This document shows, one piece after another, positions 14,818 to 45,590 of a DNA stretch of 45,590 nucleotides. The notes beneath the pieces are model-generated. The model was given only the letters and a program-made list of their open reading frames with translations. It did not search any database and was not told the DNA's origin. This DNA is from a virus. Lineage: Duplodnaviria > Caudoviricetes. Within the stretch, counting starts at the first letter, position 1. Each line of letters starts with the position of its first letter. Location of the stretch: positions 1 to 45,590 of IMG/VR virus record IMGVR_UViG_3300037419_001442; one strand, written 5' to 3'. The translations under genes and the position numbers were made by a program.

Positions 14818-14832
14818 TAATTTCACCTGCCA

Positions 14833-15506
14833 TTACATATATGTTTTTTTAAGTTTTTCAAACATTTCTTCATTAAAATTAGGATTAAGTGTTTCCTCAT
14901 TTACTAATTGAGTTCCACAATGGATACATCTATTATCATCCATATGTGTTTTACACTTTTTACAAGTCTTTTCCATTTTTTCTTCATCATCTACTGCCAT
15001 ATGAACCATTATCCAAATCCATTGGCCTTCTGTCATATTTTCTACGCTAGGGTCAGTAGGAAGTTTCTTAAAGCGATTAAGGACGGACCATTTAAATCGC
15101 TCAATTGGATTTTCCCTAGCGTTTTTTTTAGTTCGTCAAATGATTCTTGACTAACAGCACTTAAAAATGGGCTATTTTCACTTGTTAGTAAACTATATTC
15201 TACCATAAAATATTGAATTTCAGTATTATCTAAAGTAGAAAAAAACTCATCAAAAGAGTCAGCAAGATGTTTATTTAAATCGTCTTTATCTCTAAGTGAG
15301 CGATAAATAATTTGAGCTTGATGTACAATAGATTTATCATCTTCATCTTCAATATTTTTGCTTTTAATATAATCTTCAGCTTTAATAGAAGCATCAGTTA
15401 TCTCATTGGAAGGTAAGATAACCAATGCAACTTTTTCTTCCGTACCTGGAAAATTAACTAGTTTACTATTTTTCTTTCCTTGTTTTAATCTCTGTAAGGT
15501 ATTCAT
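14833..15506 (-). CDS. Tail assembly chaperone, -1 frameshift form (G-T type, about 224 aa)
   Basis: A8 run at 15122-15129 (CTA AAA AAA AC). The -1 frame is open from there (NARENPIERFKWSVLNRFKKLPTDPSVEN) into the 14833..15036 ORF. Confidence 0.85.
15042..15506 (-). CDS. Tail assembly chaperone (G type, 154 aa)
   Basis: Lies between tube and tape measure, with an AGAGGA RBS. Acidic helical protein containing the slippery LKK site. Confidence 0.85.
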   Translation of the reverse strand: MNTLQRLKQGKKNSKLVNFPGTEEKVALVILPSNEITDASIKAEDYIKSKNIEDEDDKSIVHQAQIIYRSLRDKDDLNKHLADSFDEFFSTLDNTEIQYFMVEYSLLTSENSPFLSAVSQESFDELKKTLGKIQLSDLNGPSLIALRNFLLTLA

Positions 15507-15525
15507 TATATATTCCTCCTATTAT

Positions 15526-15912
15526 TTAAATTTTATCTTCACGACGATGAGCGGCACGAATTGAAATATGTTCTGCGATAACATCATTAAGTGCTCCTTC
15601 CTCATCAATCTGAGTAATTGAGCAGCCAGTGTAAACAATACGACGGTCAGGTTTAACAATTACAAATTCAAAGTTATCAATATCATAGAAAGTAATTCCA
15701 TCTTGTAAAGCTGCTTGGTCAATATATGCTTTACTAATTTTTATTGTATATGCTTTTTTACCTGGAGTATAACCAACAGGGTCTATTTGACCGAAAGCAT
15801 CAATTTCTTTATCTTCTTTTGTATAAGAAGTATTGTAGCTTTGAACTACAGCAACTTTTCTGCCATCTACTTCAAAAAATACGTCTCTACTACTAGGGAA
15901 TGTTGCAGACAT
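15526..15912 (-). CDS. Tail tube protein
   Basis: 128-aa beta-rich protein directly after the sheath (IDAFG..P.GY.PG, YTGCSI..E). Confidence 0.85.
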   Translation of the reverse strand: MSATFPSSRDVFFEVDGRKVAVVQSYNTSYTKEDKEIDAFGQIDPVGYTPGKKAYTIKISKAYIDQAALQDGITFYDIDNFEFVIVKPDRRIVYTGCSITQIDEEGALNDVIAEHISIRAAHRREDKI

Positions 15913-15926
15913 TTTTTAACCTCCTA

Positions 15927-17012
15927 TTAGATAACTAAATATCCAGTTAAATTAATAATGTTAAGTGGACCAACTACATCATATTTAAAGTTAACATCGT
16001 TCACTAATGGATTAATTGGATTAATAACAATTTGAACATCAGTGCTAGTAACATTTTCAATATATTCCAAAGATTGGTAAGATAAAAGGCCAGTCATAAC
16101 TTCAGATTTAACTGCATCACGAGTACTTTGGCTTTGTTTTGCTCTTTGGAATTTAGAAGATAATCTATTCCTTAAATCTTTAAAAATATAGTCTGAAATT
16201 CTTACTGTTGTAACTTCTTGCCAAGTATAATCTACAGCACCAATATTATTTTTTGTATAAGTAGTAATACAGCGAACAATTCTAATAACTCCATTTAAAG
16301 TTTGGAGAGGAATAACTCCATTATCAATAAGAGATTCCATTTCAGTAATTTTAAGCTTTTTAGATAAGCCATGAAATCCTTTTATTTCTACACCAGTCAT
16401 TGGCATTGAAGGATTTTGTTCTGCAGCTAATTGTCCTGCAATTGCAGCAGCTGTATAGATTCCAGAAATTTCGTTTCCAAGAGAATCTAATGGATTAGGA
16501 TATGCCGCAAGTATTCTATTAGAATTTAAAGCATTTGCATTACTATTTGCAGTTGCATTATCTGTTCCAACAGCAAAACCAATTACTGCAGTACGTTCTT
16601 TTCTATCTGCTGAAGCATTATTTATACTATCTTTAAGAGTAGAAAAAATTGTAGGGTTTACAGAATCAATAATAACAATATCAATTGCTTCTTCTAATTC
16701 ACTAATAGCTAAAGCAGCAGCGTAATCTGGATTAGAAGAGTCACTATCATTAACTCGTACTACAATAAAATTAGTACCGCCATTTTCCATTGCTGTATCC
16801 ATAAGTGTTATAATATTTGAATCACTACCATATTTTTCTTTTGCATCGTCAAAAGAAAAAGGTGCATATGCTTTATTTGTTAATTTAATATTAGTATCAT
16901 CAGATGTACCAGAAGCAATAATGCCAATTACATATTGATTAGAGCTAATTGACTTTAAAGCTGCGCTAGCATCAACACTGGAATATACACCAGGAATCTT
17001 ATTGCTTGCCAT
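15927..17012 (-). CDS. Tail sheath protein
   Basis: PGVY N-terminus, AAAIAG, LIDNGVIPL, IRIVRCITT and VRISDY motifs. Confidence 0.93.
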   Translation of the reverse strand: MASNKIPGVYSSVDASAALKSISSNQYVIGIIASGTSDDTNIKLTNKAYAPFSFDDAKEKYGSDSNIITLMDTAMENGGTNFIVVRVNDSDSSNPDYAAALAISELEEAIDIVIIDSVNPTIFSTLKDSINNASADRKERTAVIGFAVGTDNATANSNANALNSNRILAAYPNPLDSLGNEISGIYTAAAIAGQLAAEQNPSMPMTGVEIKGFHGLSKKLKITEMESLIDNGVIPLQTLNGVIRIVRCITTYTKNNIGAVDYTWQEVTTVRISDYIFKDLRNRLSSKFQRAKQSQSTRDAVKSEVMTGLLSYQSLEYIENVTSTDVQIVINPINPLVNDVNFKYDVVGPLNIINLTGYLVI

Positions 17013-29774: not shown

Positions 29775-30038
29775 TCACTTTTTCTTTTTCTCCCAATACT
29801 TTCTACAAGATTCTCCACCACGAATATGTTTTACCGCAAAATTATAATTTAATTTTTGTTCAACTTTTTCAAAAAGAGCTGGGTGAATTTCTTTTAATCT
29901 ATGCAAATCCAAATGAACTGTAGATTTATTACTACCTGTTTCTTTTGCTACGCTTCTAATAGTTGCATTCTTTTCAATAAATAATTTACCATGTTTGATT
30001 GCTCTTTTTTCAATTTCACTTTGTTTAGTCATAAGCAT
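29775..30038 (-). CDS. spoIIID: SpoIIID-like sporulation transcription factor
   Basis: ATIRSVAKETG.NKSTVHLDL.RL.EI.P.L...V...L.YN...KHIRGGE is colinear with the SpoIIID signature TVR..AK.FG.SKSTVH.DL..RL...RH.RGG. Confidence 0.93.
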   Translation of the reverse strand: MLMTKQSEIEKRAIKHGKLFIEKNATIRSVAKETGSNKSTVHLDLHRLKEIHPALFEKVEQKLNYNFAVKHIRGGESCRKYWEKKKK

Positions 30039-30039
30039 T

Positions 30040-30237
30040 TTATTTTCCCCTTTCAAAATAACCAAGTTTTGTTAAAGCATTTACTATTTTTTTTAACTGT
30101 GATATTTGGAATCCTATTTCATTAGAATCATTTTCTTTTAAAGCTTTAAAAAGTAATTCTAAATGAATATTCATATAACCATATCTAGTTTCAATAGCTA
30201 AGTCTTTTTTAGTAACTGGACCCCTCATTTCTATCAC
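30040..30237 (-). CDS. Small hypothetical protein (possibly IDEAL-domain-like)
   Basis: 65 aa in operon. LFKALKEND.NEI helix. Confidence 0.6.
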   Translation of the reverse strand: MIEMRGPVTKKDLAIETRYGYMNIHLELLFKALKENDSNEIGFQISQLKKIVNALTKLGYFERGK

Positions 30238-30238
30238 C

Positions 30239-30472
30239 TCAATTTTTTAAGTAATAAGCTAATATATTATGTTCAAATTTAACACCAAAATAACCTATTA
30301 CTTTACCAAAATCTGATAAAATTTCATGTTCTAATTCTAATATACCAAATACAGTACCACCTTCATAATGTTCTTTAGCATATTCATAATAATAAAATCC
30401 ATTAGGTACTTTATGAATACGTATAATTTTGCTAGATATTAGTTGCTCAAGCAAGCTGTAGCTCATTTTCAT
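30239..30472 (-). CDS. Hypothetical protein
   Basis: 77 aa in operon, overlapping the end of the sigma gene. Confidence 0.6.
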   Translation of the reverse strand: MKMSYSLLEQLISSKIIRIHKVPNGFYYYEYAKEHYEGGTVFGILELEHEILSDFGKVIGYFGVKFEHNILAYYLKN

Positions 30473-31148
30473 TAGCGTTTACCTCATAATAATTTCTTAT
30501 TTTTTCTAGTGCCTTTTTATATATTCTTGACACATGTACTTGAGAGATTCCAAGCATTCTACCAATTTCAGATTGTGTAAACTCATTAGCCACATATCTT
30601 ACAACAGTTTTTTCTCTTTCATCTAAAGTTTCTAATGCTTTTGTTAACTCATCATTTTCTATAATAAGTTCATAAAAATTAGCATTAATATCTGGTATTG
30701 TATCTTCTAATTTTACTTCTCCAAATTTTGTAGAAACTGGCCTTGACATGCTTTCAACTTTTAAATCCATTAATTCCAATGTTGTTCTTGCTATTAATTT
30801 TGAAAAACCGTATTTATCCATAACTTCTTCTACTGTTGGAGTAGGAATACCAAATTCTAAATAATCTCTCATTATTTTTTTTGATGCTATTTTAGCATGT
30901 CTTGATACTTTAAAGTAACTATTTCTGTCTCTTATTTCTTTCATTACTTCACCTTGAATTGTTGGAACAGCATAAGTAGCAAATTTATTTCCTTTACTTT
31001 CATCAAATTTTAAGCAGGCTTTCCATAAACCAATAAGTGCTATTTGTTCTAAATCGTCTCTTTCAAGCATTCCTTCTTTTTGGTCAAATTTTTTAAGGGC
31101 ATAAAATGCTAATTTTTTATTTTTTTCAAATAACTCCATTTTATTCAA
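30447..31148 (-). CDS. Sigma factor, SigF/SigG-like
   Basis: DDLEQIALIGLWKA..KFD..KG.KFATYAVPTIQGE....IRD...KVSR; region 3 PTVEEV; region 4 TQSEIG.MLGISQVHVSRI. Confidence 0.9.
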   Translation of the reverse strand: MNKMELFEKNKKLAFYALKKFDQKEGMLERDDLEQIALIGLWKACLKFDESKGNKFATYAVPTIQGEVMKEIRDRNSYFKVSRHAKIASKKIMRDYLEFGIPTPTVEEVMDKYGFSKLIARTTLELMDLKVESMSRPVSTKFGEVKLEDTIPDINANFYELIIENDELTKALETLDEREKTVVRYVANEFTQSEIGRMLGISQVHVSRIYKKALEKIRNYYEVNANENELQLA

Positions 31149-31368
31149 TAATATTTCTCTCCTTTATCTAAAATATCTTTTAATTTAAATTAATTATATA
31201 ATTTTAGTCTCTCATTTTTAGACAAGGTTTCCACTTATATAAAATGAGGGTCTATCAAAATTTTCTATATATATAGAAGAAATTAAAAAAAAAATAATTC
31301 CCTTTTATTACACTTTGGAATATAATTAATTATGAAATGATATTATATGAAATAGGAGAGATGAAGTA

Positions 31369-31911
31369 ATGAATATTGACGAAGAAAAAATCTATATCTA
31401 CAAAATGTTAAGAGACATTACAAAAGAGAGAAGACAATTAGTTGAAATGTATTTTGACTTAAAGAAAAGGTTGGACTTCCTTAATTTGATGGAAGAGAGA
31501 GGAGTTGAAGAGCTAAATATAACTGGTTATGTAAATTTATATAATCAAACACAAAAAGAAATAGCAGTAACAAATATAAAAAGAGAAACTGAACATATAA
31601 TAGAAAAAATTGAAAATAATATAGAAGAAATTGAAACTCCTATTATTCCAAAAGAAGAAATACAGAGGGTAATAGAACATGAAAATAAAGGTAAAAGACT
31701 TAGTAAAGAAAAAGTACAAAGTACAGTTATATCTATTTTAAAAGATGCTGGTGCTCCTTTAAAATTATCAGAAATTATAAAGAGAACTAATTTTGTACTT
31801 AGCTCAAATTTGAAATCAGGTTATTTTAGCAATATTATTATTCCTGATTTACTAAAAAATTCTAATAAAGTAGAAAAACCAGCTACTGGTTTTTATCAAT
31901 ATAGATTATAA
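31369..31911 (+). CDS. Rok-like DNA-binding protein (coiled coil + winged helix)
   Basis: N-terminal ERRQL...Y..L..RLD helix and C-terminal ILK..G.PLK.SEI...VEKP..G.Y, the same layout as Bacillus Rok. Confidence 0.6.
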   Translation: MNIDEEKIYIYKMLRDITKERRQLVEMYFDLKKRLDFLNLMEERGVEELNITGYVNLYNQTQKEIAVTNIKRETEHIIEKIENNIEEIETPIIPKEEIQRVIEHENKGKRLSKEKVQSTVISILKDAGAPLKLSEIIKRTNFVLSSNLKSGYFSNIIIPDLLKNSNKVEKPATGFYQYRL

Positions 31912-31929
31912 TATAGAAGAAAGTCGACT

Positions 31930-31960
31930 TAAGAGTTCCTTATGGGACTCTTATTTTTTT
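31930..31960 (+). terminator. Intrinsic terminator
   Basis: AAGAGTTCC-TTAT-GGGACTCTT-ATTTTTTT. Confidence 0.85.
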
Positions 31961-32036
31961 ATTGTGAAACCTAAATAAATATTGTTTACATTATAATTTA
32001 TAATTAAATTAATAATATTTATTAGGGGGATAATAG

Positions 32037-32921
32037 ATGACAAAGACTTATAATAATGAAGAACTAATTAAATTAGCAAAAAATGGTGATAAAGATGCAG
32101 AAGAAAAATTATTATTAGAAAATGAAAGTCTTTGTCATTATATTGCAAAACGATTTGATAATACTGGTATTGATAAAGAAGATTTAGCATCGGTTGCTAA
32201 AATAGGATTACTTAAAGCATACAAGAGTTTTGACTTATCCAGAAATATTAAGTTTGCTACTTATGCTTCTAGAATAATGCAAAATGAAATATTAATGCTT
32301 TTGAGAAATAATAAAAAACATAAAAATAATATAAGCTTAGAAACTCCAATTGCACATGATAATGATGGTAATAACATAACTTTAGTTGAAATTATTCCCA
32401 TGGAAGAACCTCAGTTTAATTTTGAGGATTATGATATGTTAAATAAAGTACTCCAGGAGTTCTACAAAACTGAGAAGGAAATAGATATTCAAGTTTTAGA
32501 AAAGTGTACTATGAATGGAAGAACCCAAAGAGATGTTGCTGAAGAACTAGGTTTATCACAATCTTATGTATCTAGAATTGAAAGTAAAGTTAAGATTAAA
32601 TTTAAAAGTATAGCATTAAAACATTTAGGTATAAAAGAACCTGTTGTTAAATTAGTAGAAAAACATGGAAATACCAAATATAATAAGGAAGAATTTCTTT
32701 ATATTTTTGAAAATTATGCATTCTTAAAATCAACAGAAATAGCAGAAATTATTGGATGTAGTAAAAGAATAGTTACTAAAACTAGGACAGAATACAAAGA
32801 CGGCCTTTTATTTAATATTGAACCTAAAATTAATTTAGAGTTAAGTAAAAAGATTAACGATTATATTAGGGAGTCTAAAAATAAAAATTTTAAATCTGAA
32901 AAGAAAGTTGTAAATCAATAA
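32037..32921 (+). CDS. Sigma factor, SigE/SigK-like, with C-terminal HTH extension
   Basis: FDNTGIDKEDL.SV..IGL.KA...FD..RNIKFATYASR...NEILM.LR, D.DGN.ITL and TQRDVAEELGLSQSYVSRIE, plus about 100 extra C-terminal residues. Confidence 0.9.
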   Translation: MTKTYNNEELIKLAKNGDKDAEEKLLLENESLCHYIAKRFDNTGIDKEDLASVAKIGLLKAYKSFDLSRNIKFATYASRIMQNEILMLLRNNKKHKNNISLETPIAHDNDGNNITLVEIIPMEEPQFNFEDYDMLNKVLQEFYKTEKEIDIQVLEKCTMNGRTQRDVAEELGLSQSYVSRIESKVKIKFKSIALKHLGIKEPVVKLVEKHGNTKYNKEEFLYIFENYAFLKSTEIAEIIGCSKRIVTKTRTEYKDGLLFNIEPKINLELSKKINDYIRESKNKNFKSEKKVVNQ

Positions 32922-33591: not shown

Positions 33592-36500
33592 CTAGAATTT
33601 AATATCAAAATCCTTATATTTAGCAAAATTTATATCAAATGATTGTTCCATAACAAAATTCAAAATAAAGTCATAAATCTCTTTATACTCATGAATTTCA
33701 AATTTTTCAATGTTATCATCAGATATAATTGAATCATATAAATTAAAATGAAGGGATTTTGATTTACTTATAGAATCTGAAATTCCTAAATACTCTAATT
33801 TTTTCCTAATAACGTATTTATAAAAATCATCATCAACAAAAATTTGTTCAGCCAATATTATCTCTTTTTTATTAAAAGTTTCATCCATTAATAGAATATC
33901 ATCGTTAAAATATTCCATTACTTCTTTTTCTATATTCTTATCCAATAAATCTATTGTATCATAAAGATGTTTATTGGAATATTCTTTTTTAAATGGTTCG
34001 CTTATAATAAGTTTTTCAGATAACTTAATTTTTCTCCTTACAATCTTAGAGAATGTATCATTTACTAAAATTGTATCATGTAATAATTTTGTTTTCTTAG
34101 CTTTAATGGAATCTGATTGAGAGATAATGTCATTTAATATTCTGGATAAGAAATACTTTTTAATTTTACTATCCATTATATAAATTCCATCTTTGGCACT
34201 TTTTTTGTAATAACCATCTCTAATTGGCTCATTTATACCTATTGTTTCAGATAGCCTTACATTTCTATGGTAAACTTTTGATAAAGTATCATTTAAAATA
34301 ATACTATCAATAAAAGATTTACTATATAATTTCTTTTCAGTATCTGATAAAATAATAGAGTTTACAATATCTTTAGATAGGCTTTTATTTATTAATTCAG
34401 AACTTTTTATAAACTCCCTACGTATTTTTTTAATATTTTTCTGTGTTGAATCTAATCCATAAATAGAATCATTTTTATGAATTTTTATCTTCTTGCCAGC
34501 TACTATTTCATTTGCTAAAATAGAATCATTTAGCATTGTATTTCTATTTTTAACTATTTTTTCTGCTGTTTTAACGTAATCATTTAAAAACTTTAAGAAA
34601 TATCTAGTTCCATTAGTTAGGAATGTAGAATCTATTGATACCTTATCGTTTAATTCTTTAGTAAGCATAATATTTTTGGAATCGCTCAAATTTAATGTTT
34701 CATTTAATACTTTATTTGCTAAAACACTTGATGAATCAGCTATATTAAATGTTTCCAATAATTTCTTTGATGTATTGTTTCTTGATACATCATTTATTGA
34801 AATTGAGTCAATTTTTTGTATGCTTGTATTTCTTTTTATAAAATCATTAGACAAAATCGAGTCAAATAATGTTTTACCTTTTATGGATTTATTTATTGAT
34901 TCTGTTAATGTAATATTTTCATTAACTACTTTATTGTTCTTTTTATTAGCTTTTTCTGTTAAAGAAATAGAATCCGTTAATACTTTATTTGGTATTTTAT
35001 TAGATACATCAAATGAATAAATAATTTCAGGTAATAATTTACGTCCTGCCAATTTACTCTTTGAATCTGATGTAGTAATTGAATCATTTAAAGATATAGC
35101 TTTTGTGTATGCTTTACTAGCTATATCAGATATAACAACAGATTCTGATACATATTTTTTTATACTAGATACACTTTGTGTAATGCCATATACATTATTA
35201 TCTACAAATGTTAATGCAGTATTATTATCTGAATTCTCATCATATAAAAACATAGTTTCTTGTAGATTTACTCTATAAGTTGTGTATTTCAAAATTGAAA
35301 TTGAGCTATTATCTACAAATGTTAATGCAGTACTATTATTTTGTGTTTCATTTATAATTATAGAATCGCTAAGATTAATTCTTACATTATTAGTCTTAAT
35401 GCTAGCAATATCGCTTGTAGATATAGAATCATTTAATTTTTTTGTTACTTGTATTGATTTATTATCAGTAGCAGATACTGAATCAGATAAATTTTTTGCA
35501 GGAGGTAGAGCTACCATAGTTCCATTATTATAGTTTTGAATAATTTCTGATTGAGTTAGAACTCTGTTATACATACGGACATTATCTATAATTGCTGTAG
35601 GTGGTGATGTTGTGCTACCTAATCTAAAAACTGTGTCATTAGATAATTTTCCGATAGATGTTGGTTTATACTGTCCTTTTTGTACGGCATTTACAAAAAC
35701 AGTAATATATCCAGTAACTGTATCTGCAGTTATCGTAATGTAATTATCTACATTATCTGTAAAACCAGAAGGAGTCTTGTATATCCAATCTGTATAGTGT
35801 GTATCAAATATACCTGTTAATGCAACACCATTTTGATATGCCCATAACAAAGGTTCATTATCTGAGCTTAAAAAATATCCTTGTGAAGCACTATCATTAC
35901 TATTATTATTTACCCTAAATTCTATTGTTGCTGATGTAACTGATTGTAAAGCAGTAGGAACCGGAATATCTACATAATTTGATGCAGTTCCATTAAAATA
36001 CATACCATTGCTACCACTAAAAGTCGTAACAGTAGTTCCATGAATTGTTCCATTGCTTCCTGTAGCATTAGGGGCAATATTTTGCCAAGTTGTTCCACTT
36101 ACACCTTGTTTAGAATTCCAATAACCCAATAAACCGTTAGTTACAATTGGCATATTAGATACAATTGCATCTGAACAAGAAATTGAGTCATTTAATTTTA
36201 TACTATAATTATTAGCTATATTATCAGATATAATTACAGAATCTGATAGCGATTTTGTATATGCTTCTGAAGGTAAGCCTATTGCATTGCCATTATTATA
36301 GTTTTGGGTAATTTCAGCTTGTGTTAATACACGATTATACATTCTAATATTATCAATAATAGCTGATTTCGCCATAGTATTGGAACCCCAGTTACCTAGC
36401 CTAAAGACATTATCATTGGAAATAGTCCCAATTGTTGTTGTATACGAACCTTTTTGTACTCCATTGACATAAATTGTAATTGTTCCGGTTGATGTATCAG

Positions 36501-38220
36501 CAGTTATAGTAATATAGTTATCAACATTATTTGTGAAAGGTGTTCCTGGTGGATTATATCTCCAATCTGTATAAGTAGTATCAAAGATACCAGTTAAAGG
36601 AATTCCATTATTGTAAACATATAATAACTTTTTTGTATCCGAACTAATAACAATATTACCAGATGTACTATCTGTATTTACCCTAAATTCCAATGTTGCA
36701 GAAGTAACAGATTGCAATGCCGTTGGAACTGGAATGTCTATATGATTAGTTGTGCCGCTTGCAAGATACATTCCTGTAGAATTATTGAGAGTAGAAATAG
36801 TTGCCCCAGAAATAACTCCATTGCTTTCACTATTATTAGGTGCTATATTTAACCATGTTGAACCATTTACTCCTTTTAATGAGTTCCAGTAACCTACTAA
36901 TCCATTAGTTACAATTTGTGTATTAGACACGATAGCATCTGAAGTTAAAATAGAATCATTTAAATTTTTACTATATCTTTTATTTATTATATCCGAGGAT
37001 GTAACTGAATCATTTAATTTTTTAGTATCATTTTTATTTATCACTTCAGAAATAGAAACAGAATCATTTAGTATTCTACTATCGCTTTTAGTTATTACAT
37101 CAGAAGTAGACATTGAATCTGATAATGATTTATTATCATTTTTCTTTATTATTTCAGAAGTGGATAGTGAATCAGATAATGATACAGTTTTAAATTTGCT
37201 ATAACTTATTACATTATCTGCTACAGATATGGAATCAGATAAATTTTTAATATTAACTTTTGAAGCAGTTACTGAATCAGAAGTTGTAATTGAATCTGAC
37301 AATGATTTTATATCACTCTTAGTTAGTAAATCAGAAGTTGCAACTGAATCAGATAGATTTTTATTATTAGCTTTTGCTATTGTTGCGTCTAAATATGAAA
37401 TTGAATCTGCTAAATTCTTACTATCACTTTTATTTATTGCATCTGTATACGTAATTGAATCCGATAAACTTTTAGCATCAGCTTTAGCTACACTTTCAGA
37501 TGTAGATATAGAATCTGACAATGATTTTGTATATTGTCCAGCTGGTAAACCTACTGCATTACCATTATTATAGTTATTTGTAACATCTGTACTACTTAAT
37601 GCAGTATTATACATTCTAACAAAATAAAATTTACCTTTAAATGGGTAAGCAGTATCACCTATAAATATATAAGGGTTTGCTGTATCTCTGACACCATAGT
37701 TTTTAGTATTGTCTAGAGCTTGTGTACCTAATGAAACACCATTTTTATACACTGTAACGTTTTTAGATGTATGATTATAAACAATAGTTATATGATAATC
37801 TGTATTATCAGCAATTGTTTGACCTGTCCAAGCATGGTCAGTAACAGCATTTTCAGCATATAAAAAGTTAATATCAAAGTAGCTACTTGTTCTTGAAGCA
37901 TAAAATAAATATGCATTACTTGGATAAGTATTACTATTTGTTCCAGCTCTTAATAAGTCTGGGTCATCTACTGTATTAGTAGAGTTATATTTTAATTCTA
38001 ATGTGAAAGAGGTTGGGTTTGTGTAAGCAGGCAAAGGAGATAAAACTTTTGCATAAGATGTTGTGCCGTTATAAATAATTGCACTGCCATCTGTTGTAGT
38101 ATTATTTAGTGATACATCATAAGAGCCTTGTGTACTAGGAGCAATATTAGACCACGTTCCTGAATTTACACCTTGCAAAGCATTCCAATATCCTACTAAT
38201 CCACTAGTAACGATAGCCAA
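33592..38220 (-). CDS. Giant adhesin/fibre: three LamG (concanavalin-like) domains separated by about 17-aa K.L.DS repeats
   Basis: Three IVT.GL.GYWN..GV.G.TW.NIAP...RMYN..L......NYNNG domains and dozens of K.L(S/N)DS(I/V)...D repeats. TTG start with GAGGAGGTG. Confidence 0.85.
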   Translation of the reverse strand: MAIVTSGLVGYWNALQGVNSGTWSNIAPSTQGSYDVSLNNTTTDGSAIIYNGTTSYAKVLSPLPAYTNPTSFTLELKYNSTNTVDDPDLLRAGTNSNTYPSNAYLFYASRTSSYFDINFLYAENAVTDHAWTGQTIADNTDYHITIVYNHTSKNVTVYKNGVSLGTQALDNTKNYGVRDTANPYIFIGDTAYPFKGKFYFVRMYNTALSSTDVTNNYNNGNAVGLPAGQYTKSLSDSISTSESVAKADAKSLSDSITYTDAINKSDSKNLADSISYLDATIAKANNKNLSDSVATSDLLTKSDIKSLSDSITTSDSVTASKVNIKNLSDSISVADNVISYSKFKTVSLSDSLSTSEIIKKNDNKSLSDSMSTSDVITKSDSRILNDSVSISEVINKNDTKKLNDSVTSSDIINKRYSKNLNDSILTSDAIVSNTQIVTNGLVGYWNSLKGVNGSTWLNIAPNNSESNGVISGATISTLNNSTGMYLASGTTNHIDIPVPTALQSVTSATLEFRVNTDSTSGNIVISSDTKKLLYVYNNGIPLTGIFDTTYTDWRYNPPGTPFTNNVDNYITITADTSTGTITIYVNGVQKGSYTTTIGTISNDNVFRLGNWGSNTMAKSAIIDNIRMYNRVLTQAEITQNYNNGNAIGLPSEAYTKSLSDSVIISDNIANNYSIKLNDSISCSDAIVSNMPIVTNGLLGYWNSKQGVSGTTWQNIAPNATGSNGTIHGTTVTTFSGSNGMYFNGTASNYVDIPVPTALQSVTSATIEFRVNNNSNDSASQGYFLSSDNEPLLWAYQNGVALTGIFDTHYTDWIYKTPSGFTDNVDNYITITADTVTGYITVFVNAVQKGQYKPTSIGKLSNDTVFRLGSTTSPPTAIIDNVRMYNRVLTQSEIIQNYNNGTMVALPPAKNLSDSVSATDNKSIQVTKKLNDSISTSDIASIKTNNVRINLSDSIIINETQNNSTALTFVDNSSISILKYTTYRVNLQETMFLYDENSDNNTALTFVDNNVYGITQSVSSIKKYVSESVVISDIASKAYTKAISLNDSITTSDSKSKLAGRKLLPEIIYSFDVSNKIPNKVLTDSISLTEKANKKNNKVVNENITLTESINKSIKGKTLFDSILSNDFIKRNTSIQKIDSISINDVSRNNTSKKLLETFNIADSSSVLANKVLNETLNLSDSKNIMLTKELNDKVSIDSTFLTNGTRYFLKFLNDYVKTAEKIVKNRNTMLNDSILANEIVAGKKIKIHKNDSIYGLDSTQKNIKKIRREFIKSSELINKSLSKDIVNSIILSDTEKKLYSKSFIDSIILNDTLSKVYHRNVRLSETIGINEPIRDGYYKKSAKDGIYIMDSKIKKYFLSRILNDIISQSDSIKAKKTKLLHDTILVNDTFSKIVRRKIKLSEKLIISEPFKKEYSNKHLYDTIDLLDKNIEKEVMEYFNDDILLMDETFNKKEIILAEQIFVDDDFYKYVIRKKLEYLGISDSISKSKSLHFNLYDSIISDDNIEKFEIHEYKEIYDFILNFVMEQSFDINFAKYKDFDIKF

Positions 38221-38241
38221 TTATATCTCACCTCCTCTTAA

Positions 38242-38267
38242 TAAAAGGGTAGCAATGCTACCCTTTA
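38242..38267 (-). terminator. Hairpin terminator/attenuator before the 1542-aa gene
   Basis: TAAAAGGGTAGCA-TGCTACCCTTTTA palindrome. Confidence 0.7.
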
Positions 38268-38275
38268 TTTTATTA

Positions 38276-40375
38276 TTATTTATTATAAATATATGTTCCA
38301 TTAACTTTAACATAACCTGGAACAGTGGAACGAGTAGCAATTTGTGATTGTACTCCAGGAGTTCCATATATAGAACCAGAGTTTCCTGTTACAGTTGAAT
38401 TTGAAACAGTAATACTAATTGGATGACCACTTGTATTCATATAGTATAAATCTCCCCATACACCATGGCCTAAGTTGTTAATAAATTGACAGTTTGTAAA
38501 GTTAAGATTTTGCATGTATTGAGTTGCTTTATTAGGTTCAAAGTCAACACCTGCACATGGTCCAGCAGGGTTACCGCTAGTATTAGAGAATATACAACTA
38601 TCAACTGTTAAATCAATAGCGGATATAACTGACATGCCTTGTCTGTTATTCCTATCAAAAGTTGAATTTTTAATAGTAATTGTTTTATTATAAGGAGTTC
38701 CTGAATAATCTCCTAAATAAATTCCATCTCCCATGCAATAAGAGACATTGGCATTTTCAATAGTAATATTACTAGCATTAGCTAAAGAAATTCCCATTCC
38801 GCCTTCTGAGGAAGTATTTGCAGGACGAGCTGCTTTATCTCCTATTAATGTTGGATAACCAAGTATACTTACATTACTTACACCCCAAAGTCTTAGCATT
38901 TGATATGAGGTTAAAGATGAAGTTAATCCTTTAATAATAGCTCCTTGGTCAAACCAAACTGTCATATTAGAAGGTATGCTTAAACCTGTACTTAGATTAA
39001 TCCAGTAAGTTCCTGCTGGGAATGAAACTGCAACACCTTTAGCAGATGCATCATTGATTGCACTTTGGATTTTTGCTGTATCATCTGTTGAATCTGAACC
39101 TGTTGCGCCATAAGCTGTAACTTCAACATAACTTAAAGGCTTTGGTGTTATTGGTCCAGTAGAAGTAGTAGGTGGAGTAGGAGGAGGAGTTGTACCACCA
39201 CCGCTAACAGGAGCTAAAGGAATAATATTGAAATTATCTACATATCCAATAGGTGTACTATTAAATCCAATACCAAATCCTGTATTTGTTAATAAATCTG
39301 TTATTGTATCAGTATGAACTAAAGTAGTATTTACATACAATTTAGAAGTACCACCTTGAACTTCTACTGCAACTACATCATTTGCTTTTAATACTGGACC
39401 ACCTGTAATTGTTGCAACAGTAGTAAATGTTGCATTTTGTTCTTGTAAGTACCAGCCAGATGAGTTATAAGCATACCTATAATAACGGCTATTGCTATCT
39501 ACACGGAAATAAAAATTATGTCCATTACCTACAGTAACAATTGTTACTTCCATTCTGGCATCTGCTGTTCCAGCATCAACATATGCTGCTCCCGTTCCAG
39601 TAGGTGCATATAATTTATTACTACTAATTCCCAAACCGCCTGTACCAAATGCAGTCCAAGTTTTATTTGTTCCACCATTATAAGAATCTGTTGTTCCAGC
39701 ACCTGTCGTAGTATCTGTCCTATTAAAATCATCAGAAACTACAGAAGTAGCAGTTCCTGATACTGTTGTTCCAGTAACTGTAACAGCGGTTGAACGATTA
39801 CCTGAAGTATCAATAGCTATAATTCTAAAAGTATAAACAGTGGATGCCGTTAATCCATTTACAGTATAAGTAATAACACTTGAATTAAGAGTATTAGTTG
39901 CTACTGTATAAGTAGTTCCACCGTCAGAACTATAAGCCACTTCTTGGTTTGCTACATCGCCAGAACTAGATTTTGTCCAATTTAATACAATACTATTAGA
40001 TGAAATAGTTCCAGTAGTTAAAGATGTTATTGGATTAGGTGGAGTAGTATCAACAGGAGCTGACATTGTTGCGCTAGTAGCATCAACCCATACACCTGAA
40101 CCTTTGTACCAAATTGGTTTACTTAGTGTTGTATCAAAAAAAGGAGTTCCTATAGCTGGGTCAATAGGTCTTTCCATTGAAGTACCACTTAAACCTGCCG
40201 GGCTTACAGTGACTGTAACATTACCATTAGCATCAGGTGCAATATTATTGACAGATTTAACTGTTCCATCTCCCTTTGCATCCCAAGATGCTATTTGTTC
40301 ATCTGTAACCAATCTATGAGTACTATTATCTAAAAATTGGTTAAGATTTCTTGGAATTTCTTGACTAAATGGCAA
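38276..40375 (-). CDS. Tailspike/depolymerase-like protein: FN3 + lectin-like + right-handed beta-helix
   Basis: VKSVN...PD.NGNV and RP....G..FFDTTL.KPIW fibre motifs; DTTPP..YTFRIIAIDTSGN.S FN3; Pro/Thr linker; YGATG...TDDT..IQ.AI..FPAGTY and GDGIYLG, RQGMSV, GVDFEPN pectate-lyase-like fold. Confidence 0.85.
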   Translation of the reverse strand: MPFSQEIPRNLNQFLDNSTHRLVTDEQIASWDAKGDGTVKSVNNIAPDANGNVTVTVSPAGLSGTSMERPIDPAIGTPFFDTTLSKPIWYKGSGVWVDATSATMSAPVDTTPPNPITSLTTGTISSNSIVLNWTKSSSGDVANQEVAYSSDGGTTYTVATNTLNSSVITYTVNGLTASTVYTFRIIAIDTSGNRSTAVTVTGTTVSGTATSVVSDDFNRTDTTTGAGTTDSYNGGTNKTWTAFGTGGLGISSNKLYAPTGTGAAYVDAGTADARMEVTIVTVGNGHNFYFRVDSNSRYYRYAYNSSGWYLQEQNATFTTVATITGGPVLKANDVVAVEVQGGTSKLYVNTTLVHTDTITDLLTNTGFGIGFNSTPIGYVDNFNIIPLAPVSGGGTTPPPTPPTTSTGPITPKPLSYVEVTAYGATGSDSTDDTAKIQSAINDASAKGVAVSFPAGTYWINLSTGLSIPSNMTVWFDQGAIIKGLTSSLTSYQMLRLWGVSNVSILGYPTLIGDKAARPANTSSEGGMGISLANASNITIENANVSYCMGDGIYLGDYSGTPYNKTITIKNSTFDRNNRQGMSVISAIDLTVDSCIFSNTSGNPAGPCAGVDFEPNKATQYMQNLNFTNCQFINNLGHGVWGDLYYMNTSGHPISITVSNSTVTGNSGSIYGTPGVQSQIATRSTVPGYVKVNGTYIYNK

Positions 40376-40730
40376 TGTAACTCACTCCTTCACCATCTAT
40401 TGATGAATTAATATATAAAAGGTTTGTATTAGAAATATTAATTTCTAAACTATCGCCGGATAATAATTCTGCTCCATAAGAAGAAGATGAAACACCAGAA
40501 CCTCCTACAAATATAGAACCAACATTTAAACGTTTAGATATAATTAATATTCTTCTACAAGCCAAATTTGGAAATTGAACTGCAGTTCCTGCTGTTATTA
40601 CATTCAAAATTCCATGGTTTAAAGATTCGCTTCCCATCTCTCTTGCTGGTACATAAAAGTCTGTTCCATCTGAAGTCGCCTTTACTGCTCCAGCTTTATT
40701 ATTGGAATCATTTGGAAAAGTAAATGCCAT
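40365..40730 (-). CDS. Small beta-rich structural protein
   Basis: N.GSIFVG..GV....G.EL..GDS jelly-roll-like pattern, with an AAGGAGG RBS. Confidence 0.7.
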   Translation of the reverse strand: MAFTFPNDSNNKAGAVKATSDGTDFYVPAREMGSESLNHGILNVITAGTAVQFPNLACRRILIISKRLNVGSIFVGGSGVSSSSYGAELLSGDSLEINISNTNLLYINSSIDGEGVSYIAI

Positions 40731-40767
40731 TTAAATTGCCTCCTTTAAAAGGAAACCACATTCTCTA

Positions 40768-41217
40768 TTAAGAGAATGTGATTTGCCATGTAATTTGCAA
40801 ACTGTCAGATGAAGATGCAAGGTTTACTGCTCCAGTTAATTGATGGGCAAATAATGTTCCAGCAGATGAAGCATTAAATAGTCCAGCTTCTTGAACAGTT
40901 GTAGAAGTAGTAATACCAGTTAATGTTGCGACATATTGAATAACATTTCCACTTGGATTAGAACGAGTTACTGCAACACGAGCATAACCATTACCAACTA
41001 ATTCTGTTCCAAGACCTGTATCTCCTGCACTTACTGCAGTTGTAGAAGTACCAAATCCCATGTGAGTAACAACTGAGTTACCAGCACTTGCACTATTTAA
41101 TAATGAAGCTAGAGCATTTTTACCAACAGAAGTTACTACATTTTCTCTTTCTTCTACTAAATCACCATTTTTATATACCCAAATATGTCCAGTTACTTTA
41201 ATACCATCGTTAGCCAT
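40768..41217 (-). CDS. Virion structural protein, paralog-like to 7068..7517
   Basis: NVVTSVGKN.L..L, MGFGT......GDT.L..E, EAGLFNA and DSLQITW.ITF motifs. Confidence 0.75.
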   Translation of the reverse strand: MANDGIKVTGHIWVYKNGDLVEERENVVTSVGKNALASLLNSASAGNSVVTHMGFGTSTTAVSAGDTGLGTELVGNGYARVAVTRSNPSGNVIQYVATLTGITTSTTVQEAGLFNASSAGTLFAHQLTGAVNLASSSDSLQITWQITFS

Positions 41218-41308
41218 ATATTTTTCACCCTTCTTTTATTAGATTTTATTAGTGCTAATGCACTATATTAAAAATAATTTTATTTTTTTTACTTTTTATT
41301 CCTAACTT

Positions 41309-42127
41309 TTAAATTAATGTTATATACTTGCTAATTTCTATTCTATCAGCAATATATTTATCCATTGCTTCTTTAGCTTGTTGAATGTGTGTTTTATATG
41401 AAAGATAATGTAAATCTAAATTAGCACCATTTATTAAATTACCTAAATTTGTAGGAATAGATGGCAATAAATTATTTTGTATTTCAGTAATTGCATCTTG
41501 TTCTTGTTGAGTTAACGTTAAATTTAATGCAGGTATTACATAATGGAAAAGAGTATGCATTACAATACCATCAGCAGTAGCTAAATCTACATTAGCAAAT
41601 GACATATCCACTAAACTATTTTGATAATAATTTGCTAAATCTATGCTTTTAGTAGGAGCTATTTGATATATTCCATTACTATCTTGATAAATAGCAACAC
41701 TAATACTTCCATTATTACCACCAATTTCAATCATTGTAAGTGGAAATCCATCAATTCTAATGCTTAATGAAACTTTAACTTGAGCAATAGAAGGATGAAA
41801 TTTAACAGGAAGTGTAAAAGAATTATTTACAATTGCTACTTGATAAGTCTTATCCAATATAGAAATAGTAGCTTGTGTTGGATTAGAAGAAGCATTCATT
41901 AAATTACCAATTAGATTTGTTCCATCATAAGAAACATTAATATAAGGTTTATTAACCATTACTTCATCAAAACTATGCGAATTTATGTTAAATATTAAAT
42001 CTTTAATCCCATAATCGTTATCATCTACAATAGTTGTAAATAAATCTCCGTTAGGAAACAAAGGCATATTATAACCTGCAAATAGTACAGCATTATTTTT
42101 AGAGTTGGCTGTTATAAAAGTTAACAC
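41309..42127 (-). CDS. Hypothetical protein
   Basis: 272 aa, GTG start behind AAAGGAGG. Confidence 0.75.
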   Translation of the reverse strand: MLTFITANSKNNAVLFAGYNMPLFPNGDLFTTIVDDNDYGIKDLIFNINSHSFDEVMVNKPYINVSYDGTNLIGNLMNASSNPTQATISILDKTYQVAIVNNSFTLPVKFHPSIAQVKVSLSIRIDGFPLTMIEIGGNNGSISVAIYQDSNGIYQIAPTKSIDLANYYQNSLVDMSFANVDLATADGIVMHTLFHYVIPALNLTLTQQEQDAITEIQNNLLPSIPTNLGNLINGANLDLHYLSYKTHIQQAKEAMDKYIADRIEISKYITLI

Positions 42128-43392: not shown

Positions 43393-43818
43393 GTGATTAT
43401 TATGAAAAAAGTTAAACTAACTGAAGAACAAGCAAATACACTTGAACTTTTAAAAAGAAATTTTGGAATAGAATATGTTATTAGAACTAAAGTAAAAGGC
43501 TTTATAAATAATGATAAAATTCTAAATACATTAAAAGTAGAAGATATTTGTCAAGCAATTTATATTGGATACGAAATTGAAAGGCCTCCTGCTCCAGAAT
43601 ATCATAGTAGTAATTTTGAAATTACCTATAATGTTGGTGTAGATGATTTAAAACATAATAAAGATAATGCAATTTATTTTGCTATTAAAAGACCTTCAAT
43701 TACTACACCAGGCATACCTTCATCCGCATATAAGGCTATTAGTTTTGAGGAAGCAGGCAAAGTTAGAGATGCATTGGATGAGCTTATTGGATATTACGAA
43801 AAATATTATAGTAAATAA
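43393..43818 (+). CDS. Hypothetical protein (paralog-like to previous gene)
   Basis: KVKLTEEQA..LE...AIYIGYEIE N-terminal domain. Likely start at MKKVK behind GAGGTG. Confidence 0.7.
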   Translation: MIIMKKVKLTEEQANTLELLKRNFGIEYVIRTKVKGFINNDKILNTLKVEDICQAIYIGYEIERPPAPEYHSSNFEITYNVGVDDLKHNKDNAIYFAIKRPSITTPGIPSSAYKAISFEEAGKVRDALDELIGYYEKYYSK

Positions 43819-43831
43819 TTTTCATTAATTG

Positions 43832-43867
43832 AAAGAGACTGAGTGTCATCCTCAGTCTTTTTATTTT
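43832..43867 (+). terminator. Intrinsic terminator
   Basis: AGACTGAG-N-CTCAGTCT-TTTTATTTT. Confidence 0.8.
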
Positions 43868-43943
43868 GACATATAAAAATCCGAAAATCTTTTCTAGAAT
43901 GATTTATCATTTTAAATTATTTTAAAACTTCTGTATTTATAAA

Positions 43944-44084
43944 CTAAAGTTGGTCATTATTTTGTTTTCTCTTTTGATAGTGCTTATGAACTTCAATTCC
44001 TCTTGTTATAATATCATCAAAACCTCCATTCATAAATAAAATAAGATAGGACATAATAAATAGTAAAACTATAATACATGCCAT
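43944..44084 (-). CDS. Small membrane protein (46 aa)
   Basis: AGGAGG RBS 7 nt before ATG (MACIIVLLFIMSYLILF...). One TM helix and a basic tail. Confidence 0.65.
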   Translation of the reverse strand: MACIIVLLFIMSYLILFMNGGFDDIITRGIEVHKHYQKRKQNNDQL

Positions 44085-44369
44085 ATATAAACCTCCTGTT
44101 AAGTAAAATTCAAAACTGCAAAATAAATTTTTGAAAAATCGACTTTTCAATGTAAACTATGGCTTGTGAAACAATTGTTTAACACTTTTTATTATATATT
44201 ACCTCATAAAGACAAGATATATTATCTAATATATTTTAATTAATATATTAAGAAATATCCTCTATATATTATTATATCAACCTTTAGACAAGTTATGACT
44301 CAAAGGATAATATTGAGAATATTTCATTTTTCATTCATTCTCATTCTCACTTTCATTTCAAATACCATT

Positions 44370-45590
44370 TATACTTACTGAATATTCAGAAAATTAAGGA
44401 TAGAAAATATTGGATGAATAGAAAGAATAACAGATGGAAATGATAAGAATAGGAAGAATAAAATGAGTGTTAAAGAGAATTTGAAAATGGGAGTTGTAGG
44501 TAGGGAGATGGTCCCCTGCGTGTGTGTGTTTTTTTGAGGAAAGTAGTCGGACCCCCAAGAATGTTTGAATATTTGAATATTCAGATATTGTTGGTCATTG
44601 TGTTGAGAATGATTATCATTCTCACTACGATTTCATATAATATTTAGATTATATGAACTGATTATTTATTGATAATGAGTCTAATGTACTCATGAGTCAG
44701 TGATAATGTTTATCATGTGATATAGTTCACAAAGTCTAATTGAGAATTTGGAACAAAAATTGTATTCGACAATATCGAATGTGCAACTGAGGACATTGTT
44801 CATATCATCACACACCATTATCCCCATATACTTTTATGTTCACCCTATCACAATCTATCTCACTTTCAATCATCTCACATTCTTATATCTTTAATTAAAA
44901 CTAAATATATTTCACACTTCGAATATCTTTAATTCAGATTATTTCTATAAATATATTTCAATTTTGAATATCTCACATTTGAGACATATTATATTACATT
45001 CATATATCTTGAATTCAATATAGTCTGTTCAATAGTTCACAATCTATTTCAAATTAAAGATTTATGAATTCAAGATAGTATGTGAATTGTTTCACATTAA
45101 TGTTCATATATCTGATTATTTGAATATTCATATTCAATAGTTCACATATTAGTTTAAATTAAAGATATTTTAATTCAAGATAAATTGTTCATAGTTTCAC
45201 ATATTAGTTTGAATTTAAGATATTAGTTTCAAATATTTGAATATTCAGACGTTTTATATTAATTTCATATATCTCACAATAAAATATCTTGATTTCGAGA
45301 TAATATGTTCATGATTTCACAATAAATTATACTATAAAAATAATGTGTGAATATAATCACAAATTAATAATTATTCATTATATGGAATAAATTATTCTTG
45401 GATAAGATTATGTTCAACAGTTCACAATCTCATTTTAAAATTATTTGAATTTTCAGATAATTTAAAATAACAAAAAAAAATCTCTAATTAAAGAGATTGT
45501 AAATAAAATAAAAATTATCTATAAAATATATCTGGATTTTTGATGATATTTGAATGTATTCAATATCAATATTATAATAAACAATCATAA
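44370..45590. repeat. Non-coding array of interleaved palindromic operator-like motifs
   Basis: About 10 TGT(GA/TC)-N6-TCACA, about 9 TATCTT.AATT.AAGATA-like, about 4 AAT(A/T)TTCAGA.., 2-3 TGA.AAT..TTATCA and one TTCGACA. No ORF of 60 aa or more. Confidence 0.75.

Follow-up and report, generated by a model that had tools for sequence, protein, structure and literature searches.

A multi-regulator array of host-type operators, probably in the terminal-repeat region of an uncultured myophage

Why would a phage carry, in DNA without genes, a dense series of sites that resemble the operators of unrelated host regulators? The question is raised by positions 44370-45590 of the window, by which we mean the whole stretch analysed here (45,590 nucleotides), a 45.6-kb linear fragment of an uncultured myophage that is 41% complete. 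Non-coding terminal blocks of large Firmicutes phages usually go unannotated. The block described here, in a terminal-region setting, is built from recognisable host operators of several regulons, and the set varies between relatives. It is a real and unusual multi-regulator array of host-type operators with exchangeable content, probably situated in the terminal-repeat region. If host proteins bind it, the array could provide gene-free sensing of host fitness, recruitment for entry or replication, or a drain on repressors. This bears on the staging of DNA entry and the marking of repeat boundaries in phages with long terminal repeats, and on the choice between lysis and dormancy in phages of spore formers.

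The window encodes a contractile-tail module, a large terminase (TerL) of PHROG 675, PhoH, RNase H, SpoIIID and two sigma factors. The best cultured matches of its TerL reach only 36-39% identity and are mostly Bacillus phages, while three uncultured relatives carry TerL proteins 80-85% identical: G001 (102 kb), G002 (24 kb) and G003 (46 kb). Like the window, these three records are linear fragments, and completeness across the four is 22-71%. In G001, where 93 ORFs of at least 80 aa outside the structural block were scanned, DnaE, a helicase, its loader, a primase, HU, a tyrosine recombinase, SASP and DUF444 proteins are additionally encoded. SpoIIID, the sigma factors, endolysin matches to Bacillus names (~41% identity) and the operator types point to a Bacillaceae spore former as the host. 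GTDB genome contigs contained no TerL relative and hence offered no prophage or host link; a metagenome terminase scan added only the contig of G003 plus distant terminases, and a sigma-factor scan yielded three further distant loci, all without arrays.

Two other gene groups deserve mention. Sporulation genes occur at 29775-32921 of the window (SpoIIID and the two sigma factors) and in four stretches of G001 (L012, L014, L015 and L016: four sigma factors, SpoIIID, an alpha/beta SASP and DUF444), a set that suggests manipulation of sporulation or spore entrapment. Upstream of the sigma factors, a late block at 33592-42127 encodes large accessory proteins (1542 aa; 699 aa, tailspike-like; 149 aa, fibre-like) and is absent at the equivalent place in G003.

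Composition and packing of the array

The features of the region are listed below with the evidence for each; a strand is given where one was assigned.

43836-43858: intrinsic terminator hairpin ending the genes left of the array; the only terminator in the scan of 43800-45590 (minus)
43944-44150, minus strand: 68-aa ORF without PHROG or Pfam match; ORF list and profile search
44107-44160: AT-rich conserved element, common to G003; alignment
44222-44296: anchor block retained by a related phage with diverged flanks; contigs of runs X4, X8 and X10
44372-44395: CodY-type site (one mismatch, at 44381) with a weak partner at 9-bp offset; consensus and matrix
44493-44558, plus strand: GC-rich block in AT-rich DNA; core kept in G003 and in the related soil-run phage
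44604-44624: perfect 21-bp palindrome with two overlapping Fur boxes (44604/44610); consensus and host loci
44670-44715: two more Fur-type boxes, weak at 44670 and with one mismatch at 44701; consensus and matrix
44716-45426: twelve redox-regulon-type 16-bp sites, symmetric (Rex/Fnr-like) at 44716, 45081 and 45346 and asymmetric at 44797, 44837, 44864, 45026, 45131, 45186, 45263, 45306 and 45411; consensus, hand map, matrix, and host enrichment and context
44886-45302: ten MhqR-type 18-bp sites, strong at 45005 and 45285 and degenerate at 44886, 44924, 44969, 45045, 45060, 45150, 45165 and 45205; consensus, matrix, host context and PMC6798810
45026-45235: diverged 105-bp duplication within the array, arms kept better than spacers; self-comparison
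45231-45254: weak CodY-type pair at 9-bp offset; consensus and matrix
45362-45379: single palindrome, ArgR/AhrC-like by a consensus that we presume
45439-45462: CodY-type pair at 9-bp offset (45448 at one mismatch); consensus and matrix
45469-45498, minus strand: hairpin resembling a terminator, with a U tract, to the right of the array and directed towards it; fold z=-2.7

A preliminary description of this DNA had reported more than 25 packed operator-like sites in the region, and this was borne out by about 27 matrix matches from four families: 11 redox-type (Rex/Fnr-like), nine MhqR, four Fur and three CodY-type, against a shuffle expectation of 0.2-0.4 per family (100 shuffles). One of the nine MhqR matches, at 45477, is a terminator stem. 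The matrices were built from stored loci, with the threshold set on the remainder of the window. Those for MhqR, redox and Fur sites derive from host loci fetched with window-derived patterns, so that their seed sites score high by construction, and the CodY-type matrix derives from phage P59; the independent evidence for MhqR, redox and Fur identity is host gene context. Consensus strings from the preliminary description, compared with 200 dinucleotide shuffles of 44370-45590, returned 11 Rex/Fnr-like sites at up to two mismatches (shuffle mean 1.2, maximum 5; nine in the other 44 kb), with perfect sites at 44716, 45081 and 45346. MhqR-like sites numbered three at up to four mismatches (shuffle mean 0.03) and six at up to five (mean 0.20), and at up to one mismatch there were two CodY and two Fur sites (mean 0.01 in each case). 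The proposed comparison with shuffles and with the rest of the genome, run with consensus strings and scoring matrices, thus places motif density far above shuffles, Spo0A excepted.

A hand map of 29 candidate sites covers 64% of 44790-45465 and 78% of 45000-45325. The centres of adjacent redox/MhqR pairs lie exactly 20 bp apart in seven of nine cases and 23 bp apart in the remaining two. GC content in the array is 0.226 versus 0.293, and the array ends at ~45465, at the terminator-like hairpin. Almost end-to-end packing, as first described, holds within the array but not for 44396-44603, a siteless interval occupied by a purine-rich tract and the GC-rich block. Similarly, the region contains no ORF of 60 aa or more, but it is not strictly ORF-free, a 54-aa TTG frame at 44394-44558 (minus strand) overlapping the GC block.

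Within the first 72 bases of the 105-bp duplication, mismatches affect eight of 57 site-arm positions versus seven of 15 other positions (Fisher p=0.011), a test that is partly circular because the sites were defined from the same DNA; the last 33 bases contain 21 differences. A motif-free palindrome count reaches its window maximum in the array, 21 per kb (median 5), yet this value is tied with the coding stretch at 39.5-40.5 kb, so that the count alone does not single the array out. That coding signal belongs to positions 39001-40500, inside the 699-aa tailspike-like gene, where 17-21 motif-free palindromes per kb perhaps stem from Thr/Ser codon content.

Host regulators matched by the sites

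Judged by sequence, the array sites match the DNA targets of four host regulators, which sense quinones, redox state, iron and amino acids. The MhqR operator is a 9-9 bp inverted repeat (PMC6798810), and compared with the symmetric form site 45285 differs at two of 18 positions and site 45005 at three. The approximately nine MhqR-like sites of the preliminary description are present above chance, but only these two fall within the score range of host secondary sites; the others (~8) are degenerate and below host range, yet among the best-scoring positions of the window. A search of seven of the 64 parts of GTDB with the pattern of site 45285 gave 122 stretches, mostly from Bacillales, of which 80 came with DNA and 65 with an annotatable downstream ORF. 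At 61 of these 65 loci the site precedes quinone-detoxification or MhqR-regulon-type genes or MarR genes. The downstream genes encode a glyoxalase-type dioxygenase at 24 loci, an esterase at six, DoxX at five, an azoreductase-type protein at five and a nitroreductase at two (together 42 of 65), MarR at ten, and pirin, YceI or flavin reductase at nine, leaving four unrelated or unknown; the correspondence between regulon genes and Pfam families is in part our assumption. This context fits the MhqR regulon of B. subtilis, for which only four operators are named (PMC6798810), and on these grounds the name MhqR appears sound.

Among the twelve Rex-like sites, nine are of an asymmetric variant, all in the same orientation. 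Across 61 Bacillaceae genomes this variant has 140 matches versus eight for a reversed control (~18-fold). Thirty loci were fetched, 26 of them annotatable, and at 15 of the 26 the site precedes anaerobic or redox genes (other genes at 11): pyruvate formate-lyase (4), cydA (3), NADH-linked oxidoreductases (3), lactate permease, adhE-like/aldehyde dehydrogenase, Dcu, COX2 and a 4Fe-4S protein. A smaller sample of 13 annotatable loci contained pflB, adhP, nirB and one NADH-linked oxidoreductase. Such context does not separate Rex from ResD or Fnr. The Rex operator is an 18-bp inverted repeat with an AT-rich 4-bp spacer, and in Staphylococcus aureus Rex positions 4-5 of the arms are reported to matter most, changes there lowering affinity (PMC2883068). 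Measured against this operator, three symmetric sites stand at two mismatches and four others at three, and one site in G001 is perfect; since arm position 4, 5 or both differ in the asymmetric variant, ResD or Fnr may be its readers. We consider it likely, from sequence, that Rex reads the three symmetric sites. The Rex/Fnr label given initially to about ten sites can be kept as that of a redox/anaerobic regulator, with the qualification that the asymmetric majority may belong to another regulator, e.g. ResD.

Fur-type sites follow the 7-1-7 inverted repeat of the preliminary consensus, two at one mismatch plus the overlapping pair 44604/44610. Their core has 19 matches versus one for the control in 41 genomes (~18-fold), a full 17-bp query having proved too specific (one match in the same number of genomes). 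Among 14 annotatable loci, five concern clear iron uptake (FecCD, iron-type binding proteins, FeoB), three are consistent with it and six are other or unknown, and this iron-gene context argues for the Fur assignment. The CodY box is described as a 15-bp pseudo-palindrome whose pairs overlap by 6 nt (PMC10415144), and the CodY-type sites agree with it, two standing at one mismatch and three pairs having the 9-bp offset, with partners at four mismatches; here too the original name is upheld by sequence, against the published box.

Evidence for further regulators is slight. The single Spo0A box (TTCGACA at 44765) pointed out initially is present at chance level (p=0.175), and a phi29-type cluster of 0A boxes was rejected on the same count. 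Consensus strings that we presume for PerR, CcpA, TnrA and CzrA found nothing in the array. Members of the MarR, Rex, CodY and Fur families were absent above cut-off from the four partial phage genomes, weak MarR matches falling inside sigma-factor genes.

Flanks, relatives and arrays of other phages

The array block lies between two converging terminators. On the left, the hairpin at 43836-43858 has a plus-strand fold of z=-3.9 with a U tract; on the right, the hairpin at 45469-45498 was not picked up by the terminator scan of 43800-45590. The first site lies 220 bp, and the first redox-type site ~570 bp, from the nearest gene start, that of the 68-aa ORF.

The GC block (44493-44558) precedes most of the sites, and its fold is no better than that of shuffles (z=-0.2). 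Its pattern was found at 30 loci, 29 of them in higher-GC DNA without arrays; the remaining one belongs to G003, the sole relative. By analogy we infer that it is a candidate site for a phage protein, either terminase or a repeat-boundary factor.

Near-identical contigs were recovered from several soil and rhizosphere runs, three of which are possibly the source sample. Those of runs X1, X3 and X5 reach 123, 235 and 10 bases past the window end, which is an assembly break; the DNA continues for at least 235 bases, so the array is not shown to occupy a physical end. A related phage in runs X4, X8 and X10 retains, in order, the anchors 44222-44296 and 44493-44518 and the Fur block 44604-44657, and has the spacers between them replaced (272 and 86 bases). 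Motif conservation with spacer divergence, which the preliminary description had proposed to look for in related phages, is thus seen for the Fur and GC blocks. Another X8 contig has Fur-like boxes on both loose ends of 44630-44661. Contig depth drops over the array in X1, X4 and X5, although contig depth is not copy number and the DNA is AT-rich.

Among the close relatives, G003 shares the upstream element and the core of the GC block, followed by an array up to the contig end. The 575 bases beside its GC block contain 13 CodY-type matches, one Fur match and no MhqR or redox match before the contig is cut, whereas the window has Fur, redox and MhqR sites at the equivalent position; a CodY-dominated array in the same place indicates that one operator set can be exchanged for another. 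In G001 the GC block is a different one, and the array, which lies at the far side of the genome, has 20 CodY-type matches in long 9-bp-phased runs, one perfect Rex site, one Fur box and palindromes that we take to be ArgR-like; G002 reaches neither array region. In this family, genes of both arms point toward the arrays, converging as in Bacillus phage Evoli.

As a separate observation on G001, positions 12967-16130 of stretch L014 contain consecutive SIS, HAD phosphatase, PfkB kinase and cytidylyltransferase genes, a row that we take to resemble a nucleotide-heptose pathway and that adjoins a deaminase and a divergent thymidylate-synthase-like gene; DNA or surface modification is a possible role.

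Similar designs were found in other phages. The CodY-phased pattern has 42 viral loci, seven with at least ten sites at up to two mismatches, and a small-terminase (TerS) gene lies within 3 kb at five of 14 ORF-scanned array or pattern loci. Matches to the G001 array occur in 72 cultured records (Bacillus phages in 62 cases), many of them at record positions 400-1200. SBSphiJ-type phages of B. subtilis showed short matches at 7.2-7.5 kb, a putative array of the CodY form. In Evoli, 17 CodY-type matches fall in the gene-free first 1312 bases of a record without repeat annotation, whose ends do not overlap in the stretches compared. QCM8 has 15 CodY-type matches ~2 kb from the left end, inside an annotated 6.7-kb terminal repeat, and P59 has 16, ~10 kb from the left end and within an annotated repeat of 13.3 kb. 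All three phages are Bastillevirinae, and their arrays have 0-1 matches of each other family. These arrays resemble that of the window in being gene-free and built of host-type operators where genome arms converge, but they are essentially CodY only (15-17 matches), a CodY-rich design shared by G001 and G003, whereas the window array is dominated by redox-type and MhqR sites. On this analogy, the window array is likely to fall within a presumed terminal-repeat region.

Searches for a second MhqR/redox-rich array, in IMG/VR and among cultured phages, returned none: a compound MhqR-plus-redox pattern had no viral contig, the exact MhqR-type pattern had 18 viral loci, none of them an array, and blastn of the array against cultured phages gave chance-level matches only. 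High-GC virus contigs of one sample number (L278, L279, L285, L288) have near-perfect MhqR-like palindromes, one at each of several intergenic places, and a phage-encoded regulator is a likelier reader of these than MhqR.

Several smaller observations concern the surroundings of such arrays. Short GC-rich similar repeats occur before or among the CodY-type arrays of Evoli (L074:105-160), QCM8 (L076:1885-2030) and P59 (L075:10070-10290), and are candidate phage-protein sites analogous to the GC block of the window. Pure 9-bp tandem runs of CodY-type half sites, with more than ten copies, were seen in other phage contigs (L049:375-720 and 1500-1660; L065:190-360), that of L065 directly upstream of a small terminase gene. 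An unrelated low-GC phage (L069:940-1530) shows a window-like order, from the terminase side: a dinucleotide run and GC block, a CodY-type array, a terminator and converging genes. The close cultured TerL relatives Eoghan and 019DV002 have direct terminal repeats of 794 and 839 bp ending at a G-rich block (L313:794-850 and L314:800-850), located just past the terminase small subunit gene and a candidate cut-site signal for this terminase class. In the intergenic stretch at its repeat boundary, Eoghan has no match (368 bases scored) and 019DV002 has one (296 bases scored), so phages with this class of terminase do not all carry an array.

Possible functions of the array

The reading that we favour, still tentatively and from sequence, is that the array acts in cis and would give the terminal-repeat region a coat of host proteins. 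CodY, Fur, Rex and MhqR hold DNA in a fed, iron-replete, redox-balanced cell that is free of quinone stress, and they release it under starvation, low iron, high NADH or quinone stress; the coat would therefore be fullest in healthy cells, and its occupancy would report host fitness. Early in infection, one or two genomes would face an excess of repressor and could be fully coated, and the coat may license or protect an end-linked step such as capture, anchoring or shielding of the entering DNA, or alternatively serve a replication start at the GC block. Many progeny copies would later exhaust the scarcer regulators, a late titration that would be a by-product here and is likely under a coat or a sponge. 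Such a coat explains operators without a gene to regulate, tight and regular packing, and an operator set that changes while the GC block keeps its position.

Support comes from the position of the array, by analogy with the QCM8 and P59 repeats and with TerS proximity. Against it, simple end protection fits poorly with the QCM8 and P59 arrays, which are 2 and 10 kb into the repeat; the 20-bp spacing may be partly inherited from duplications; and most MhqR sites are weak, while the asymmetric variant departs from Rex at critical arm positions. Of the preliminary suggestion of a coat at a genome end, position and exchangeable content thus agree with the data, but the window end itself is no physical end. 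A known case of a host protein at such a place is the IHF site at lambda cos, one architectural site for a packaging or entry step near the genome end. The T5 injection-stop signal is repeat-rich and, to our knowledge, has not been described as a tiling of metabolic-repressor operators. Both resemble the array, by description, in that host-protein sites or repeat-rich DNA serve an end step. Binding is directly testable, given that cultured Bacillus phages carry the CodY form and that B. subtilis regulators and mutants exist.

The main rival, somewhat doubtful and likewise drawn from sequence, is that the DNA works in trans as a protein-free sponge, rising genome copies titrating host repressors and thereby de-repressing NAD+ regeneration, iron uptake, amino-acid supply and quinone detoxification. 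It would account for many sites without an adjacent promoter and for their match to real host regulons. The two strong and ~8 weak MhqR sites per genome are, we estimate, of the same order as the four B. subtilis operators (PMC6798810). For a pure sponge, however, neither the fixed 20-bp packing nor a place at the repeat or TerS junction is required, and its sites would be expected to be perfected, whereas about eight of ten MhqR sites lie below host range. Relatives, moreover, carry mostly the CodY set, yet CodY has more than a hundred chromosomal sites (PMC10415144). A broader version, a modular protein-free cassette of operators in terminal repeats whose content is swapped between lineages and which de-represses several regulons as a sponge, is possible but likewise doubtful. 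Were titration to prove correct, it would amount to a DNA-only metabolic takeover, an element class absent from the literature searched, and confirmation of either a sponge or a coat would make the element categorically new. A search of mainly non-subscription papers, covering CodY in terminal repeats and elsewhere in phage genomes, decoys for transcription factors, host repressors at terminal redundancies and the non-coding DNA of Bastille-like phages, found no description of such an array.

A transcriptional sensor is unlikely. Here, in the manner of Spo0A in phi29, bound regulators would act, in or beside the array, on a non-coding RNA or on phage promoters of the sigmaA, sporulation or phage-sigma type and so tip the balance between lysis and dormancy or spore entrapment. 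The two sigma factors and SpoIIID of the phage, together with SASP and DUF444 in G001, accord with such a role, as do the identified ligands, all of which are physiological sensors, and single promoter-like sites that overlap the Fur palindrome. In phi29, which also carries parS sites, host Spo0A sites repress promoters and block replication initiation (PMC2731898), and the window shares with it host regulator sites on phage DNA, some near ends or origins, a link to host state and a spore-forming host. The phi29 arrangement differs: its six 0A boxes all serve one regulator, which occupies them under starvation, and they are sited at promoters and origins (PMC2731898), whereas the window has ~27 sites for four regulators packed between terminators, most of them predicted to be bound in healthy cells. 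Host operators of MhqR, Rex, CodY and Fur are likewise matched in sequence, symmetry and, for CodY, 9-bp offset, but they stand singly or paired on a promoter, whereas the window sites tile 1.1 kb without an adjacent regulated gene. Several findings speak against a sensor: sigma70-like promoters, the type scanned for, are not enriched (27 versus 21.5+/-5.3 expected), terminators face the block on both sides, the Rfam and tRNA scans of the window were empty, the redox/MhqR block is ~570-1250 bp from the nearest gene start, and the operator set differs among relatives. The gating function of the preliminary description is weakened in its adjacent-promoter form, since the block lies between terminators and shows no promoter excess, but gating of an end-linked DNA step is possible.

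It is improbable that a phage protein (a small terminase or a replication initiator) binds the sites and that their likeness to host operators is due to chance or descent. The array is AT-rich, internally duplicated and placed beside a conserved GC block, similar arrays lie by TerS genes, and in genomes 22-71% complete the binder could be missing. Yet the sites form four unrelated families, of which three are matched to distinct host regulons and one to the CodY box as published, a variety for which one phage protein would have no need; the motif mix changes between relatives whose TerL proteins are 80-85% identical; and no homologue of MarR, Rex, CodY or Fur passed the cut-off in the four partial genomes. 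In G001, cumulative GC skew has a maximum and no minimum near the array, although gene strand confounds this measure. An iteron-type origin was considered and discarded, the families being four and different in relatives; no initiator was recognised among the neighbouring ORFs.

Finally, a neutral satellite derived from a duplicated, captured host promoter fragment, or an assembly artefact, is very improbable and largely refuted: internal duplications and the breakage of three of the four family contigs in such arrays are outweighed by the recurrence of near-identical contigs across runs, the better conservation of site arms than spacers in the partly circular test above, the related phage that keeps its Fur and GC blocks amid replaced spacers, and the convergence of unrelated phages on the same design. 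In addition, short contigs of other phages (runs X1, X2, X3, X5 and X8) match only CodY-type pieces within 45099-45254 and carry different spacers between them, a hint that further variants of the array exist in these soils.
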